64,000 nucleotides of DNA from Sminthopsis crassicaudata. Taxonomy: Eukaryota. The position numbers and the translations under genes were made by a program. The stretch covers positions 254,841,238-254,905,237 of the forward strand of contig NC_133621.1 in assembly GCF_048593235.1 (NCBI RefSeq). The letters run 5' to 3'. The notes below the pieces were generated by a model. It did no database searches, was not told the origin of the DNA, and was given only the letters and a program-made list of their open reading frames with translations. Numbering within the stretch: position 1 is the first letter of the stretch; every line of letters starts with the position of its first letter. Below are positions 6,150-27,130 of this stretch, piece by piece.

Positions 6150-6650
6150 GACTTCCTTTTGCCAAAGTGGACGTTATTATCTTACTTCTGAACCTGCACT
6201 ATATTTACCTGCTTTGGTGCCCTTGCTGAAAGTGTTCTCTAATGTCATGAATTGCTTCCTTTCCCCTTTCTACCTGCAGCATTCCTATCAATTCTTCAAG
6301 TGGTTCCATATTACTAAGTCAAAATACACACTCCTCATTTTGTCTTCTAAAATGCCCCAAAATCTAGCCACAGCTCATGTTTTCAGGCTCCCTGCTATAT
6401 TATTATCCTCCATGCATTCCTCAATCTAGCAAAGCTGATCTACCTTCAGCTTCCCATATAACACATCCCATTTCCTATTTCCATGATCTTGCAGAAATTT
6501 CCTCACATGTTCATCTCTTAATCTGATTTCCTTCAAGACCTGATTTAAATACCACTTCCTACAGAAAGCCTGGCTTGATGCCATCAATTACTAGTGTCCC
6601 CTTCCTCAAAATTATTACTTAATTTTAATTAATTTATATTTATCTACCAA
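6150..6650 (+). mobile_element. L2 LINE 3' fragment
   Basis: Pyrimidine-rich degenerate L2-like 3' sequence (ttccttcaagacctgatttaaataccacttcctacagaaagcct). Confidence 0.5.
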
Positions 6651-9600
6651 TTTCATTACCTGACTTCTGGTGAGCACTTACTGCGAAGAGTGAAGTTTAC
6701 CCTTCAATGAGACAGATGAAAATGTGCTTCAAAGTCATTCCTGCTAAGTTACACTGATCAGATTCTGGGTTCCCTTAGTTGAACCCCTCCCCAAGGAACA
6801 GAAATCTCTCTACCTCCAAATAATGCATTTGAGGAAAATTTTAGTAGTGGTGGACTTTTAAGTTCCAGCAAATAATGATTCTTATACAGAGTTATCCTGT
6901 GTTTTTTACATGGTGTCATCATATGCAGTCAGAATTCATTGTAAATGTTGAGAAAGAATGAAAAATAGAAAGATATTGCCAAACATTTTGTAGAATTTCA
7001 CTTTCTTTCAAATTAGAGGCTACAAATACTCAATAAGGATCTGGAAAACCATAAAACAAAGCATACTTTCTACACCTCAGGGCAACAAGGGGGGAGAACA
7101 ACTAAGATTGAATATTGAATCCATTGTTACCCAATGTTTCCCTATTGGATCACAAAATCAGAAGTACAACTTGGAGAACCTTTAAAATAATCTAGTCCTC
7201 CTTCTTTATTTTATAGATAAGGTTCTGAGGCCAGTAGATGATTAATACTTATTGAATTACCTTGATTGTTTTTAATGATCACAAGGAAGGGATTCAATCT
7301 TGGACAGGGGAATGAGGTGAAAAAGGACTAATGTAATACTTTAAAAAAAAAAAAAAGCATCACTGAAACTTTTTTAAACAAAGATTCAGGAAAAAAATGA
7401 AATAAAACCTTTCAACACAATAAGTCAAGGTGTTACACAATTGGTTTAAGATATACTTTTCCTTAATGAGAGCTTCTTTACAATGAATAGGATTGGTTTA
7501 TGTTTCAGAGCAGGGATACAGGAAGGGAGAGACAAGGTATGGTGAGCTGAGAAAATGCTCTTAAAGCCCATTTTGCTTTGTATCCATGTAAAATAATTCT
7601 ACATCATATCTTAAAAATGGTCAGGGAGGAAAATCCTGCAGACATTGTCTTTACAGGTGCATTGGCAGCTCATGGTCTATAAAGAACAAAAAAATATAAA
7701 ACCACACCTGTAATGGGATCAGACGAAACTAAATCCAGTTGAATGCAATGAGAAATGATACAGAATTTTGCCAAATAAACTCAATGCAAACAGTTCCATG
7801 CAAATCATAGTAACATCACTAAAATTTTATGGATCCCAGATATATGAACATTGAGGGATGGAAAACAAGGCTAATGAAAAATTCTCATCTTCCCCAAACA
7901 TTTACAAATACATAACTCTTTTCTACCTGGTGTTCAAGTATATCTTGGTCTTGGATTGTACTTATGATACCCTATCTCTCCAGCTTAAATCTTCAACGTG
8001 CTCTATGTTCCAGCCAGCTAGAAAACTTTTATTTCGCCACCCTCCCCAATAGACATTCTCATACATCCATGCCTTTGTTCAAAATTCCCTTTCTCCTCAT
8101 CTATCCTATCATCTACATCTATCCTATATTCCATATTGTTCTTTCCTAATCAACTCAAATGCCCCTTCCAACTCCCCAGACCTCAGTCCCATTATAACAG
8201 TTTTGACCATGTAATATTTTAAATGTAGCTACATGTGTTGCTGTTTTACTTCTTTCTCCATTTAACTTAAGTTTTTGAAAAACAGGGTTCTGTGCTAGTT
8301 AATTTTGCCTGCTTCAGCTTTCCCTATTCTGGCATAAGTGCTCAGCAAACAGCTGTCCCTTCAAATAATATCTGTTGTATTATATTGCATTGGGTTAAAG
8401 TGGCCTATAATACAAAGTTCCATATCAGTGACTCTTTATGTTCCACTGACTCCATTTTAAATCATTTTATAAAATAGCTATTTATGCCACAAATTGGATC
8501 CCACTGTAGATCCACTACCCTTCCTTTGGTAGCCTCCATTTTTAAATATAACAATTCAACCAGGAATGATGTGTTTTGGTAAAAGAATTAAGGATATTAT
8601 TTCTTAATAATTACTATAAATAAATTTAATAATTTTAATAATTAATATAACATACCTGGTCTGTAGCAGGCACAGTGCAAGGTCTTAGGGACATAAAGAA
8701 TTATGATTCAAGGAGCTTATATCAATAGGCAATGTGGCATGGTAGAGAAAATGCTAGACTTAGGATTCACATCTTACCTCTGAACTGTTTCATTTCAGTC
8801 TTTTACTTCAAGTATTTTACTTGATCATCTCACTTCCAGCTCTAATTTGTCATCCTACGATCCTACTGGTGGAAACTAAATAACCACAAGAAGGTCACAG
8901 GCATAAATACAAAGTAAATTGGAGATGGAGCATTAACCACTGAGTGAAGGATTCTGAGATTCTAAGGAGATAAGGGGTTTATATTACAGGGACTGTATTC
9001 CAGAGATGGGAGACAGTTTGTACAAAGGCACAGGGGCTGAAGATAAATTTCACATAGTAGGAATTGCAAGCATGGAGCTCTTGAGGACAGAACAGGAGGG
9101 GAAGGGAGTATAAACACACAAATCTGAACAAGTAGGCTAGAGGTAGACTGCGAGTTTAAATGCTAGTTTTTACTTTGTTCTGCCCTGCAAAGAGTAAAAT
9201 CTCAAAATGAATTTAGGAAAAGAAAAAACTTCCCTCTCACAAGGAATTAAATAATTATCCTTGTTACTCAATATTCTTTTAAAAGTTGTGAGAAAAGAAC
9301 TATGGTGCCATAGTAGCCAACATAGACATATGACTGACAATGATTAGAAATTAAGTACATGTTAAACAGAAATTAATAGTATCTTAAAGAAGGGATAGTG
9401 CCTGTAATCCTATCACTATTTACAAATGCAGCATCCACTTTAGCCAATGACTAAAAGAAGTAGGGAATGGGGGTCAGATGGATGGAATGGATGGAACAGG
9501 AAGACATAGCTGACCACATGCTGGAATTAGTAATCAACAGATTTGGATTTGAATTCTATTGGTATATTTTCTATACATGGGGCCATAGAAAAATCACTTA

Positions 9601-18759: not shown

Positions 18760-18891
18760 NNNNNNNNNNNNNNNNNNNNNNNNNNNNNNNNNNNNNNNNN
18801 NNNNNNNNNNNNNNNNNNNNNNNNNNNNNNNNNNNNNNNNNNNNNNNNNNNNNNNNNNNNNNNNNNNNNNNNNNNNNNNNNNNNNNNNNNN
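18760..18891. other. Assembly gap (132 N)
   Basis: Run of N. Confidence 1.
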
Positions 18892-20470: not shown

Positions 20471-22019
20471 GCCAGAATCAGAATTGTTTCATTCTTTTAG
20501 TGAAATTCATATTTTCTATCTATTTCACCAAACTGACCAGAAATAACTTATTTTTTTCAGCACTAGCTACATTCACCTCACCATCTTCCTCACAGGACTG
20601 TGCACTAGCATTCTCAAAAGGGAAGATCCTACTACTTAAATGAAAAAGTGATATTTATCATTCAATTCATTTTGCATATAGATCAAAGATCAAAAGTAGT
20701 TAATTAAGGCCAAAGAGTTTATCATCAGATCAACTGAAGAATAATGAATTTTCAGTCACAGAAAATCCTGAAAACCATCTATCAAGATGTATATATATCA
20801 AAGTACATACCCCAACTTCATCAAGAACCAAATAGGTCAAACTAATCTTATTTCCTTTAGTAGGCTAAGAACAACAGATGAAAGTCACACCTATAATATA
20901 TTTAGCTTTCAGCAAGATATATAGTCTTGTTATCCTGTTAGATAAAACTGAGAGCTACAGACCAGGTGGAAAAAGTGACCACTTCAACTAAACCAGTATA
21001 TTTAAGGTATATTTTAAATTTCCAACTTCTTGAAGGACAAGAATAAGCACTACTAATGAGCCTACCTCCTCATCTATGTGCAAAAAGCTTAGCCAAAATA
21101 TAATTTAACCATAGAAATCTGTGGAAAATTCACCTTTAACTTATGAACTAGCCCCCTTCAAGCAAGGTAGCTTTTATTCTTTACAGAAGGTATATAATCT
21201 GAGGACAACTTAACTTCAATTTCAGTCATCTAATCTTCATATTAAAATTTCATGGGCAATTATGTCTTTGTGTTCAGAAACTTGTTCAGCTATGATTAGG
21301 GGTATGAGTTACAAACAATTTTTCTCTATATTATTGTGGTTCTTTGATGATTATTTGGATTAATTTTTAAATTAGTTTCAGATTTTTATACACACACACA
21401 CACACACACAAACATATATATATTTCAAACTCATTACAATCAACTATAACTCACATCTTGGGTTCTATAATGTGAATTAAAGCCATAATATGAATAACAT
21501 CTGAATAACAAAACCAAATTATTAGATTCTAGAGTCAAATGATATAATGAAAACTTGGGGGAAATTCTTATTCTTTGCCTCAGGTGGCTGGGATAATAAA
21601 TCTAACAAGAATCATTTTGTTCTAAGCAAGGGGATACAGACAAAAGTTAGAATCTCTTGAGGACTTTAGAATTTTGATAAGACAGCTCAGAGAACTGTCC
21701 ATTATTTTGCTTCTGTTTTATTTTCTAAAGAAAATAAAATTTGAATTCTGAAGGACAAAAATAATTAGAAAGAACTGAAAACCAAAGGTGATAAAGGAGA
21801 AAGCTCAAGCTGTTGTTCTCAAATTCAAATTTCTGGATTTCAAATTTGAGGATACCAGAATGAACAAACAGTTGGAATTTTCTCAGCTGCTCTCTTGATC
21901 TTTGAAACCTCTAGGTTTTCATTAAGGAGAAAAAAGGAGGCATTTGTAAATGGAAACTTAATGAGTTTGACTTTACACTAATTATGAGATGGTTTGTTAG
22001 CAATTAGAATGGGAAATGA

Positions 22020-23010
22020 TCATTTAAAAACCAATGTGGTCTCCTCAATAACATGTCGAACTAACTTCATTTCATTTGACAGGGTAATCTCAGTGGTAGA
22101 ATAGGTGAATATTATAACTATCTTTATTTAGATTCTAGCAAGGTACCTGAAAGAGTCTTATTTTTAATGATATTATTATGGACAAAATTGAGAGCTATAA
22201 TAGGCTAGATGAGATAGTTCCATTATTTAATATCCTAATATACGTCTCCTCCTTGGGCTTTAGAATATTAAACCAAGATCTAAAAAGATCTTGACAGGCC
22301 CAAAAGAAAAGTCAAAATAATTATAACAAAAATTCATAAAGGTAATTAAAATTTTATATATTTAGAGATTGATCAATTAACTTCACAAATACAGTGTACA
22401 CATAATAGATATCAACAAATAAGAACAACTTTTATATATGGCATTTATATAACTCATACAATGTTTCAGGAATTGGTTTGTGCTTTATGTAGATCACCTC
22501 AACATTATTTCATTTAATCTTCACAATAACTCTGGGAGGTTTTACAGATAAGGAAACTGACACAGATAGAGATTAAGCAACTTGCTCAGCAATAAATACT
22601 AAGTATCTGAGGTAGGTCCAGTGCTCTATCAACTGTATCAACATATTCTCAAGAAAATGATCTAGGAATTTAGTAGACTACAAACTCAATAAGGCAATAG
22701 TGCGACATTGCAGTAAAAACAAAACAAAAAATAAAACCTCCAAAATCTTGCTAATATCCAAAACTATTGTTCTTCTACACTCTTCCTTAGACTAATGTAC
22801 ATCATGAGTTCTAAATTTTAGGATTAAACTAGGATGGTTCTATAAGAGAGTGACTGGGAGGTGAGAGACTTCAGGATGTTCTTAAAAATGATTGGCTTCT
22901 ATGTTGTAGAAGAAGAGGGAAAAAAAATGAGGGAAGGACAATAGCAATCTTCAAGTATTTGAAGAGTTATAATTTGGATAGATTAGTCTTGTTAGAAACA
23001 ATTCTGAACC
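22020..23010 (+). mobile_element. CR1/L3 LINE remnants interrupted by a MIR
   Basis: catgtcgaactaacttcatttcatttgacagggtaa...ttatttagattctagcaagg, CR1 RT motif region; 3' part gtagactacaaactcaataaggcaatagtgcgaca. Confidence 0.55.
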
Positions 23011-23928
23011 TCAAATAAGGGCACACTAAATGAACAAATTCAGGAGAATGAAGCAGTATAAACTTTTAATATATTCCTGCAGGAAGTGGATATGAAACTT
23101 GAGATGAGTTCACACACTTTTCAGAAGGAAAAGTCTTTTATCCCTTATCTTCACCACAAAGTTGTTCTTCTACCTCTCTAATGGTTGAGGTGATGAGGTT
23201 AATATTCTTTTCTGATGTTCCTACAATATACAGCTACATACATACATTGTATAATCATTAAAATGAGTATTAATTCCTTCTGGGGATAAATTAATATCTA
23301 TGAAGTACTTAAACATGACATAATGGAGCCAAGCTAAGACCTTTGTAATTCAGCTTTTACTTTTTTTAAAACTACTAAACTAGTTTTGTCCAGTTCTACC
23401 CAGTTTCAATTGGTTTCAGGAACTTCCATGCTCCCCTCCCTCAGGTCTACTTCCAATTTCAAACTTGTAGATTATCTTCACTATGTGAACATAACTATTG
23501 CTTCCCATAGTCTTACTCTAATTTAGCTTCCAAAGGCCAAAAAAAAAAAAAAAAAAAAAAAAAGAAGCCCAGGGAAATGTTTAGGATTGAATGGAAAAGC
23601 TTCTTAATGTAGACTTCCAGAGATGGTGCTTCATATCCTAGTTGTAGTAACTAGACTATGGCCAAGAAATAATAAAACAAAATATAAAAATTTTGGGACT
23701 ACCTGAACTGGACTACCTGAAATCCATGGTCAAAGGAAAAAAAAAAAACTGACACAATAATATACTATATAGGCTAGTGTCTTTGCCTTCACTGGGCTTT
23801 ATGGAAGAAAAGCAATGATTGCTTGGGGATCTTTTGATTAGTTTTAGGTTCAAGTATTTGTTCTTTTGGGGTCAGTGACTCTGTTCAGTCTCGGAAATAT
23901 CAGAGCAGTAGAAAAATGTTTGGTAGAG

Positions 23929-24960
23929 TGTTAAAGGAGTCACCGGCTAGTGACTGCTGGGGATCTAATTCTATCCAGCAGAATAGATCCCTTCATGTGA
24001 GAGGATGATAATGATACAAGGAAACTGAGAGGCAAGTTCCCTCTTGCCTGCAATTTATTTCATTCTCAATTCACAAGCAACATCTGCATCAGTAAAGACT
24101 GATGTGTAATTCCTTCGTGTGTTATGATTCATAGCTAGGGGGGCTTTCAGAGAATCAACTTGCCCCTCACACTTAGGCATGGTACTTAACAATTCCCATT
24201 TTTTGTTTGATGGGAACATTATTTTCCCCAACAGCACTGTCAGTTTGTCTGATATTGTTAAGTGGCCATTACCTGAGTCTGAATGTTGAGAAATGCAAAT
24301 AGCACAATAAAAATCTTTTCCGTCCTATTATTCTAGATGGTTGGAGGATGAGAGGCTACAGCAGATGTTGAATCTTGTGAGATGTAATTTACTCTGACAT
24401 CATCTGACATCATAATAGTCTATCATGGAGGCAAACTTTCTGACAAATGAACAAATAGGTTTGTAGTCAAAGTAAGCATTTTTCCTAAGTCCCCTCATCA
24501 ATCTCCTGGCTCAGTCCTGTGATGTGCTGGCCTCTTTTAATTACCCCAACTGATAAAGTCTTATCAAGGTCTCTTCTTCCTTTTCTTCCCTATGGGTTAC
24601 CAAAGGTTCCTTTAGCTCTCAAGTGATGCTGCTGCTTCTTTATTTCTTATGCCCCTTATTGGGCGCCATTTGTTATGGGAGCCACCTGCTCATGGCTGCT
24701 GGAGAATCTAATTCTGTCCAGGAGAATAGATCCCTTCATGTGAGAGGATGATAATGATACAAGGAGACTGAGAGGCAGTTGTATTCTCTGACCTCTCTAC
24801 TCCTCTCTCTTGCCTGTAATTTATTTCATTCCCAATTCACAAGCAATATCTGCGTCAGTAAAGGCTGTTTTGCAATTCCTTCAAGGTTTTTATGATTCAC
24901 AGCTATAGGGGCTTTCAGAGAATCAACCTGTCCCTTCACACCTAGGCATGGTCCTTAATA
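23929..24960 (-). mobile_element. Complete miniature non-autonomous ERV (class II/betaretrovirus-like signals): 5'LTR-PBS-479 bp internal-PPT-3'LTR
   Basis: 5'LTR 24671-24960 and 3'LTR 23929-24191 are homologous direct repeats. PBS TGGCGCCCAATAAGGGGC at 24668-24651. PPT AAACAAAAAATGGGAAT directly before the 3'LTR TG. 6-bp TSD GTAGAG at 23923-23928 and 24961-24966. Confidence 0.92.
24651..24668 (-). other. Primer-binding site, tRNA-Lys(1,2)-like
   Basis: TGGCGCCCAATAAGGGGC vs canonical TGGCGCCCAACGTGGGGC (15/18), 2 nt after the LTR CA end. Confidence 0.88.
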
Positions 24961-25699
24961 GTAGAGTTATTTTAATCACTTTTGAAAAATACAGAAGAGT
25001 GTGCTACCCATCTCTCATTCATCTGTTGGTCATCTATCTGCATGACAAACAGCTTTATAAATAACAATAAAACCTAAGTTGAAAATGGGTCAAGAACTTG
25101 CCTTTCTTTGTGTCCTCTTGGCATAAAATAATGCTATGTTTGGCACACAGTAGGAGCTTAATTAATGATTGTTGACTGAGTGACTGAACTATTAGTGAAA
25201 AAGGAGCATCACTTATATACCCAAATAGAGTAATTACATTTCTTTTTCATAAATATTGAATGAAAATTTTAAGAAACTCTCAGGAGACCATTGCTCTCAA
25301 CTCCCATGTATCAATACTGCCTGCCAACATATCAATCCTATCTGCTCAACACTGTCAAAAGACATCAAGTCCACTATATACTCATATAAAGCTAATTTCT
25401 TTTATGTCACTAGAGGATAACAGCAGCCACAAAAACAATAGCAATAATTAGAATTTAAATAGAATTTTAGATTTGCCAAGTAATTTACAAATATTTCATT
25501 TGATTCTTACAAGAATCATGTGGCAGGTGCTATTATTATTTCCACTTTATAGATGGGGAAACTCAAGTTACAGAAGTTAAATGACTTGGCCAGAGTCACA
25601 TCAATAATAAATGATTATACTCAGGCCTTCCTACCTCAAGGTTTGGTGTTCTATCCGTTATCCCACCCAAGATTCATCAATAAATGTCACTTTTTCCCC

Positions 25700-25917
25700 A
25701 TCATTTCAGTCTTGTTTGACCCTCTGTGACCCCATTTGGAGTTTTCTTGGTCAAACTACTAAAGTAGTTTGCCATTTCCTTCTCTAGTTCATTTGATAGC
25801 TGAGGAAACTGAGGCAAAGAGGGTAAAGTGGTTTGCCACACAATGTCTGAACTTAGGAAGAAGAGTCTTTCTGACTCCAGATCCAGCATTCTATCCATTG
25901 AGTCACCTGGCTGCCCC
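25700..25917 (-). mobile_element. MAR1-type SINE
   Basis: Reverse complement of tRNA head, CORE and RTE-like tail. Confidence 0.8.
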
Positions 25918-26687
25918 AATAAACATCAAGGATCTTAATGTGCTAGTATGGAAAGTCCTTCTACTAATGAAAATCATTTAATAAGTCAAATACATTGGAA
26001 GACATTGCACTGGGAATTCATCTTTGTATTTTAGTGACTAGTTAACAAGCCAATTGTATGATTTTTATAAGGAAAAAAAACCATATATGGTAATCTATGT
26101 CATTAGTTAACCCTTTTAATAATCTGTACAATGGTACATTATCTTCAGTTTACAAAATTTATTTTTAAAGAACTTGTGATAGCACAAAACCCAAGCATTT
26201 CAAGATTAAAAAGAAAAGATCCTATCTTGAGTTTTAAAGATCTGAAATATAATCTCCATTTGGATAATGATCCTCCAAACCTAGAGGGTAAGAACAGTTA
26301 AAGGATCTCAACTTTTAAAAATGCAGAAAGTCCTCACACCACTATTACCCCATTCCTATCTGATAGGAGTTTTATCATGCATTATATCCACCACACCACC
26401 TTCCTCGGAGATCCCATCAGACCTCTTGTCTTAAGTAGTGTCAGATTCCCTAAACAGCAATATACGTGATGAAGAAGAGGCAGTCTTTTCATGTATTCAG
26501 CAGATATTCCAAAAACTCCTGAGAATTCCTTAACTCCAGAAATTAGGTCAAAATTCATAGCCATTAAAAAGAGACAGCTTCCCTTTTTGAGGAGACCCAA
26601 ACTACCCAAACTAAAATGTAATATTACCACTAAATTCTTCCTGAATTTTTATCTCTACTTAGTTTAAGACAGATATTGGTAGGGTGA

Positions 26688-26970
26688 GGCCAAGAAAATA
26701 ATAAAACAAAATACAAAAAATGAGAATATAGAAGAAAATGTGAAAGAACTTATAAGAAAAAACAATAGATCTGGAGAATTGGTCAGGGAAAAAAAAATCT
26801 TTTGGACTACCTGAAATCCATGATCAAAAGGAAAAAAAAAAGAAATGGCACAATAATATACTATGTGACTTTGCTTTCACTGGGTTTTAGTGGAGGATTA
26901 GAGGAAGCAAAATACCATAATGTGAAAGAGCTAGACAAATTCCACAACCCAGTGACAAAAGTTTTCTGCA
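26688..26970 (+). mobile_element. L1 ORF1 fragment (degenerate)
   Basis: agaagaaaatgtgaaa...ggactacctgaaatccatgatcaaaa resembles marsupial L1 ORF1 (EENVK...GLPESHDQK). Confidence 0.6.
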
Positions 26971-27130
26971 TGATTTTAAAACAAGCACATAAGAAGTGTT
27001 AATTTATTTACTCTTTAAATATTTATTAGCTTTAATATATGACAAATCCCTTATTGTTATCCCTCTAATGTTACTTCTATTATACTTGTAATTATGGTAT
27101 TTGTGGGCCAATTTAATCTTTCCCACTACC

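Follow-up and report, generated by a model that had tools for sequence, protein, structure and literature searches.

Non-autonomous endogenous retroviruses (ERVs) of mammals, such as mouse ETn/MusD, VL30 and MaLR, are larger between their LTRs, from about 1.3 kb up to several kb. Together with koala PhER and recKoRV these are non-coding LTR elements moved in trans, as the mini-element described here appears to have been, with an internal sequence (0.33-0.59 kb) shorter than that of ETn/MusD, VL30, MaLR or PhER. The available text of PMC6112702 proposes co-packaging of unrelated elements for PhER and KoRV. TRIMs are reported from plants, insects (ants), cestodes and bivalves, with the TRIM-like Helenus in zebrafish and coelacanth (PMC10886601), and the available portions of that paper and of bioRxiv 10.1101/010850 name no mammalian or ERV-derived TRIM. 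Like the mini-element, TRIMs and SMARTs are about 1 kb long, carry two LTRs, a primer-binding site (PBS), a polypurine tract (PPT) and a target-site duplication (TSD), and encode no proteins for mobilisation. TRIMs also resemble it in forming occasional tandem arrays (here L153 and L157, arranged LTR-internal-LTR-internal(-LTR)) and, according to the same portions of these two sources, in originating from a longer element that lost internal sequence (PMC10886601; bioRxiv 10.1101/010850). The mini-element differs in its origin from a class II retrovirus instead of Copia/Gypsy, in its 6-bp TSD and in having kept fragments of gag and env. At 1,032 bp the copy studied here lies just above the usual 1,000-bp line of TRIMs; a plant survey, in its available part, counts elements of up to 1,449 bp as TRIMs. 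Because of its TRIM-like working, its retroviral ancestry and the 1-kb limit, we class it among the non-autonomous class II ERVs, as a TRIM-like member, and not as a canonical TRIM.

The dasyurid betaretrovirus clades MEBrv1-5 are likewise class II ERVs of dasyurid genomes, and the parent lineage of the mini-element had a beta-type (GP41-match) env; the screen that reports these clades, in the text available, required gag/pol/env protein similarity (PMC11334065). The mini-element is not described in the available main-text parts of PMC11334065, PMC4408412 and PMC3403934, and we found no published description of the family, the supplements of PMC11334065 and PMC4408412, as possible holders of one, aside. 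Its LTR, here LTR A, is abundant and may well have an entry with no more than a name in Repbase or Dfam.

The element has a short, multicopy structure with independent 6-bp TSDs, descends from longer relatives and has no capacity to encode Gag or Pol. We consider it highly probable (about 0.88) that it belongs to a non-autonomous, trans-mobilised family derived from class II ERVs, which likely spread via the proteins of another retrovirus. A first-pass annotation of the locus had proposed that it may be such a family, and that reading is supported; the nature of the internal part as a deletion mosaic of gag and env goes beyond it.

The window element and its family

The window, by which we mean the whole stretch of 64,000 nucleotides analysed, contains one mini-element, for which the first-pass annotation had the coordinates and the two-LTR structure right; the element reads on the minus strand.

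23929..24960, minus strand: whole mini-element, 1,032 bp, LTR-internal-LTR
24671..24960, minus strand: 5' LTR of 290 bp, TA...CA, family LTR 'A', from the LTR alignment
24651..24668, minus strand: PBS for tRNA-Lys(CTT), 15/18 match, 2 nt past the LTR
24536..24650, minus strand: leader, with a homologous counterpart in longer relatives
24222..24535 (approximate ends), minus strand: broken remnant of the family's 103-codon mosaic frame
24479..24535 (approximate), minus strand: piece derived from the gag start, by comparison with longer relatives
24438..24478, minus strand: piece derived from the capsid N-terminal domain, by comparison with longer relatives and Gag_p24
24222..24385 (approximate), minus strand: pieces read as env signal peptide and SU start, with internal deletions
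24192..24208, minus strand: PPT, adjoining the 3' LTR
23929..24191, minus strand: 3' LTR of 263 bp, TG...CA, from the LTR alignment
24961..24966, no strand: TSD GTAGAG, 5' side of the element
23923..23928, no strand: TSD GTAGAG, 3' side of the element

The element thus ends in a direct repeat on each side and has PBS and PPT in between, and re-analysis gave the same lengths as before for both LTRs and for the internal part (479 bp). The LTRs differ by 33 substitutions over 263 aligned positions (12.5%, K2P 0.139), within the 10-15% previously judged by eye; the indel of about 27 bp reported between them holds as a length difference and resolves into one gap of 23 nt plus gaps of 1, 2 and 1 nt. 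The 5' LTR begins with TA rather than TG. The PBS had been called tRNA-Lys1,2-like, in agreement with its 15 matching positions, and genomic tRNA-Lys(CTT) genes have the Lys1,2 motif as their 3' end (ARAGORN reports Lys-CTT at 3/6 loci with the motif); the PPT and the exact GTAGAG duplication reported earlier were both recovered. The leader is the probable packaging region; its splice-donor-like site is degenerate in the window copy, its folding was not significant (z -1.88), and an Rfam scan of 22000-27000 returned nothing above threshold. No other LTR copies and no stop-free frames of at least 150 codons occur in the window (1-64000), which has a single N stretch at 18760-18891.

Searches covered a genome of 3.24 Gb in 8 contigs and scored only the best 40-150 candidates each, so that rare long elements can be missed. 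At first look there were 681 candidates for the internal sequence and 4,034 for LTR A (best 40 scored each). The internal sequence was present in 225 fetched loci, 182 of them distinct, a lower bound for the family. Both LTRs were complete in 64 of the 182, spaced 331-594 bp apart (median 460), and TSDs matched at five or more of six positions in 42/64 (perfectly in 22) and at four or fewer in 22/64, against a null, from ends of different loci paired by the same procedure, of 8.5% at >=5/6 and 0.6% perfect. The many loci with the same short structure and their own TSDs bear out the earlier preference for a miniature family over a single deleted provirus, and a one-off deletion does not account for them. 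Three samples were blind to internal length: 29 LTR-selected insertions comprised 9 short two-LTR elements, 20 without adjoining internal sequence and no long ones; two LTR-end+PBS patterns led into the short internal sequence in 26/26 matches (21 distinct); and all 88 matches examined for a PPT+LTR pattern, from 143 found, were preceded by at least the 3' part of the short internal sequence. Recapture against the PPT+LTR pattern, with four independent samples, gave 380-550 copies, probably a lower bound.

A tree of 150 internal sequences was star-like with one well-supported subfamily split (bootstrap not converged); subtype labels by motif are noisy, and only the A1-type clade (99/95) was relied on. 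Median LTR-to-LTR gaps of 425-490 bp by subtype, with two LTRs of about 290 bp, give elements of ~1.0-1.07 kb. Both class II traits, the 6-bp TSD and the tRNA-Lys PBS, are present in the family. Over 162 mini-element loci the PBS was Lys1,2-like in 66, Lys3-like in 36 and ambiguous in 60, and the 36 Lys3-closer sites suggest that both tRNA-Lys1,2 and tRNA-Lys3 primers were used.

The source of the internal sequence emerged from longer relatives. Among 19 longer, more degraded env regions, a single one, L264, proved similar to the 3' part of the internal sequence (E 2.5e-19), and its LTR is related; a search with its env yielded 10 candidates, and upstream of these, 7/10 regions also matched the leader, the gag start or the capsid piece. 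From these matches the internal part is therefore composed of leader, gag start, a capsid piece and env pieces, so that the earlier statement that no gag/pol reading frame could be recognised is true of the window copy, while the DNA itself comes from gag and env. The capsid piece matched Pfam Gag_p24 on a longer relative (E 2e-18). The env pieces come from the region that opens env at the end of integrase and are read as signal peptide and SU start, from a hydrophobic stretch and a YW..PFPP motif that we take to be betaretroviral. Longer relatives match Gag_p24, RVT_thumb and rve, in keeping with the class II affinity proposed at first, and the parent-lineage env matches GP41. The mini-element is without pol; the integrase of a relative had as its best PDB match 5cz1/3jca, presumably MMTV (E 4e-15, others 1e-8 or weaker). 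Five relatives read in translation were all broken and internally deleted, and in four of the five, judged by eye, the capsid C-terminus seems to run directly into the RT thumb, which suggests stepwise reduction via a 4-5 kb intermediate. As far as sequence comparison can establish it, the family is shown to consist of ~1-kb non-coding elements reduced by deletion from a class II (betaretrovirus-like) ERV. Two sets of candidates were rejected: the best 30 loci for Gag_p10 and the best 30 for GP41, considered as partners, had neither LTR nor leader in common with the mini-element, and the L192/L193 env N-termini, considered as relatives, had only distant similarity (E 0.14-0.23) and other LTRs.

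Unlike-LTR insertions and the probable helper

In the mechanism that we favour, mini RNA would be transcribed from the 5' LTR, packaged via the kept leader into particles of another retrovirus, reverse transcribed from a Lys primer by borrowed proteins, and inserted by integrase. Eight distinct insertions bear on where these proteins may have come from. They read LTR B-PBS-mini internal-LTR A, with LTR B at the 5' end and its start intact, and LTR A at the 3' end (L227, L238, L278, L295, L304, L314, L327 and L157); LTR A and LTR B have no similarity to each other. TSDs matched at >=5/6 across both ends in six of the eight and perfectly in three (null 9%), in a search that allowed several candidate ends, with the null given the same freedom, over only 8 chimeras. 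The chimeras are scattered at separate places in the internal-sequence tree and differ at the PBS junction, some with the tandem PBS repeats of family B. The two LTRs made by normal reverse transcription are identical, and pairing at the PBS is all that second-strand transfer requires (PMC6088434, available part). The unlike-LTR insertions are best explained by co-packaging and intermolecular second-strand transfer, in which plus-strand strong-stop DNA of a B genome would anneal to the minus strand of the co-packaged mini RNA and so produce just the arrangement seen.

Family B is abundant (5,211 LTR and 2,293 leader candidates) and encodes gag, protease, RT, RNase H and integrase. Its LTR pairs (K2P 0.14-0.23, four elements) indicate an age similar to that of the mini-element, and it is not the young family with a 740-aa Gag (RT 44% identical). 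The first-pass annotation had looked to an autonomous partner sharing the LTR; no complete LTR A provirus was found among 60 gag/env loci, 19 longer env regions and the 10 L264-env candidates, and the likely helper may be a family with a different LTR. With this result, and with the relatives read in translation internally deleted, the evidence for the helper is indirect. We put at about even the chance that it was family B, at least for later subtypes; otherwise it would be a complete virus from the same lineage as the element, outside the loci sampled.

Helpers usually belong to the lineage that they mobilise, and env-bearing relatives with a related LTR exist. The mini-element may accordingly have been mobilised in trans only by its own complete parent, of the LTR A lineage, with the chimeras arising by later DNA recombination at the shared PBS or by assembly error, a reading that differs from our best explanation in the helper only, so that the probabilities overlap, and that we regard as a distinct possibility while leaning against it. 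For L327, none of the listed contig pieces from four runs spanned the step from LTR B into the internal sequence, so it is the assembly that carries the evidence for the chimeras. If two integrated elements had recombined, however, no matching TSDs would be expected on unlike LTRs, yet these are present in most of the chimeras, and the search for a complete LTR A provirus speaks against this reading as well.

Returning to co-packaging and second-strand transfer, a second class of insertions reads PBS-internal-LTR A without a 5' LTR. TSDs matched at >=5/6 in 5/11 of these (null 2.7%), where L292, one of the five, has a doubtful PBS call and four loci were dropped when no PBS start was found. 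The PBS-start copies fit a failed second transfer, after which the PBS end would have been used for integration. L246, L267, L301 and L320 begin directly at the PBS with no 5' LTR and yet have a 6-bp TSD on their flanks. In HIV-1, errors of second-strand transfer leave proviruses with defective 5' ends (PMC12657518, available part), and there as in the chimeras the transfer depends on PBS complementarity only (PMC12657518, PMC6088434). Unlike the HIV-1 cases, the products here are fixed germ-line fossils, with two unrelated LTR families or no 5' LTR. The chimeras also differ from recKoRV, which in the available text has two KoRV LTRs around a foreign middle (PMC6112702), in having two unrelated LTRs.

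Several loci had further arrangements of the two LTRs. In L217 (1514-2250), as also in L226 and L285, LTR A is followed by an inverted LTR B, and the pair in L217 is arranged head to head, with overlapping PBS-like sequence at the join. In L285, L336-L355 and L406, a family B LTR often leads into a tandem series of units, each made of PBS plus LTR end, and then into the TSD, the units sometimes mixing Lys1,2- and Lys3-type PBS. L406 has the 3' half of LTR A with a SINE-like piece twice around a family B internal region (280-620 and 6500-6820); at the 5' side the LTR A half precedes the PBS, possibly a reciprocal chimera. In L334 (2320-3430) a GC-rich, processed-pseudogene-like sequence, which we take to be membralin-like, interrupts family B gag.

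The 103-codon mosaic frame

Proteins for mobilisation are absent from the family, which has only a mosaic of fragments, 103 codons long, in one subtype. This frame joins the leader-adjacent gag start, the capsid piece and the env signal peptide in that subtype alone. In 17 longer-subtype copies, reading from the ATG behind the leader, the first stop common to the copies came at codon 104, shortly ahead of the PPT, whereas each of the other five frames had several, and with junction phases set at random a frame would be open with probability 0.022. These two observations would be expected if the gag/env fusion had been functional, as a membrane-targeted peptide or in protection from RNA decay, and selected in a master element. 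We consider this unlikely, since divergence between copies is equal at the three codon positions (0.17/0.19/0.19), the segment needed for the frame was scored in only 4/88 PPT-sampled copies by a rough motif test, and no real protein homologue was found. The frame now decays neutrally. The 4/88 figure also means that frame-broken subtypes spread at least as well, and with neutral decay and most sampled copies frame-broken, the element could spread without the peptide. In the window copy the start codon is gone and the frame is shifted; two further copies are open and were used as queries, for which Pfam and PDB scans gave nothing real and a homologue search gave 0 matches. HMMER against 1.84 billion proteins returned 2 matches, both low-complexity repeats without a Pfam link, which were rejected.

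Mode of spread and age

It is very improbable that the copies multiplied through segmental duplication or that L1 retrotransposed the RNA: near-identical clusters are few (L139-L141, in a segmental duplication cluster at G000:C2:40.5-41.0 Mb, and L012/L016), and while some copies are 5'-truncated, full copies have two complete LTRs, 6-bp TSDs and unrelated flanks, and the L1 route would produce copies that begin inside the LTR and finish in poly(A). Loss of genes after insertion, by one provirus or by many independently, is refuted by the same deletion junctions recurring colinearly in 32 aligned copies with distinct TSDs at each locus, even though longer, internally deleted relatives with different deletions exist.

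Applying a rate of 0.0045 per Myr from the available text of PMC3403934, the LTR alignment proposed earlier for dating gives about 15 Myr for the window copy and about 19 Myr for the family. LTR-pair K2P over the family had a median of 0.172 (IQR 0.14-0.19). The mammalian rate is about half of 0.0045 per Myr, at which the estimates become 30-40 Myr, and the window insertion is thus roughly 15-40 Myr old. Two further species share the insertion, with contigs that run across the flank-LTR junction at 23929 (33/260 and 28/248 differences), so it predates the split from them. The family is now dead and decaying, and, old and inactive as it is, does not evidently affect the host today.

Tentatively, and at slightly under even odds, this would be the first TRIM-sized element from a mammalian retrovirus, a betaretroviral genome cut stepwise to an internal part of less than 0.5 kb and hijacking the particles of an unrelated ERV family, with unlike-LTR or PBS-ended insertions as germ-line fossils of co-packaging across families and of second-strand transfer between molecules, from which helpers could be named quite generally for non-autonomous LTR elements. 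TRIM-type parasitism would then extend to mammalian ERVs. The family shows how small a mammalian retrovirus can become without ceasing to be copied, and its ~430-500 nt between LTRs bound the cis-signals needed by a betaretrovirus-like particle. Unlike-LTR insertions would offer evidence, from sequence only, of the protein-supplying family, which is usually guessed from LTR similarity. The several hundred old insertions and thousands of LTR copies could serve as presence/absence markers for host-group phylogeny.

Among the remaining family copies, L093 and L080 are smaller two-LTR derivatives with ~90 and ~150 bp between the LTRs, and recurrent inversions of one LTR or of part of the element were seen in L014, L112, L125, L136, L152, L156, L219, L221 and L225.
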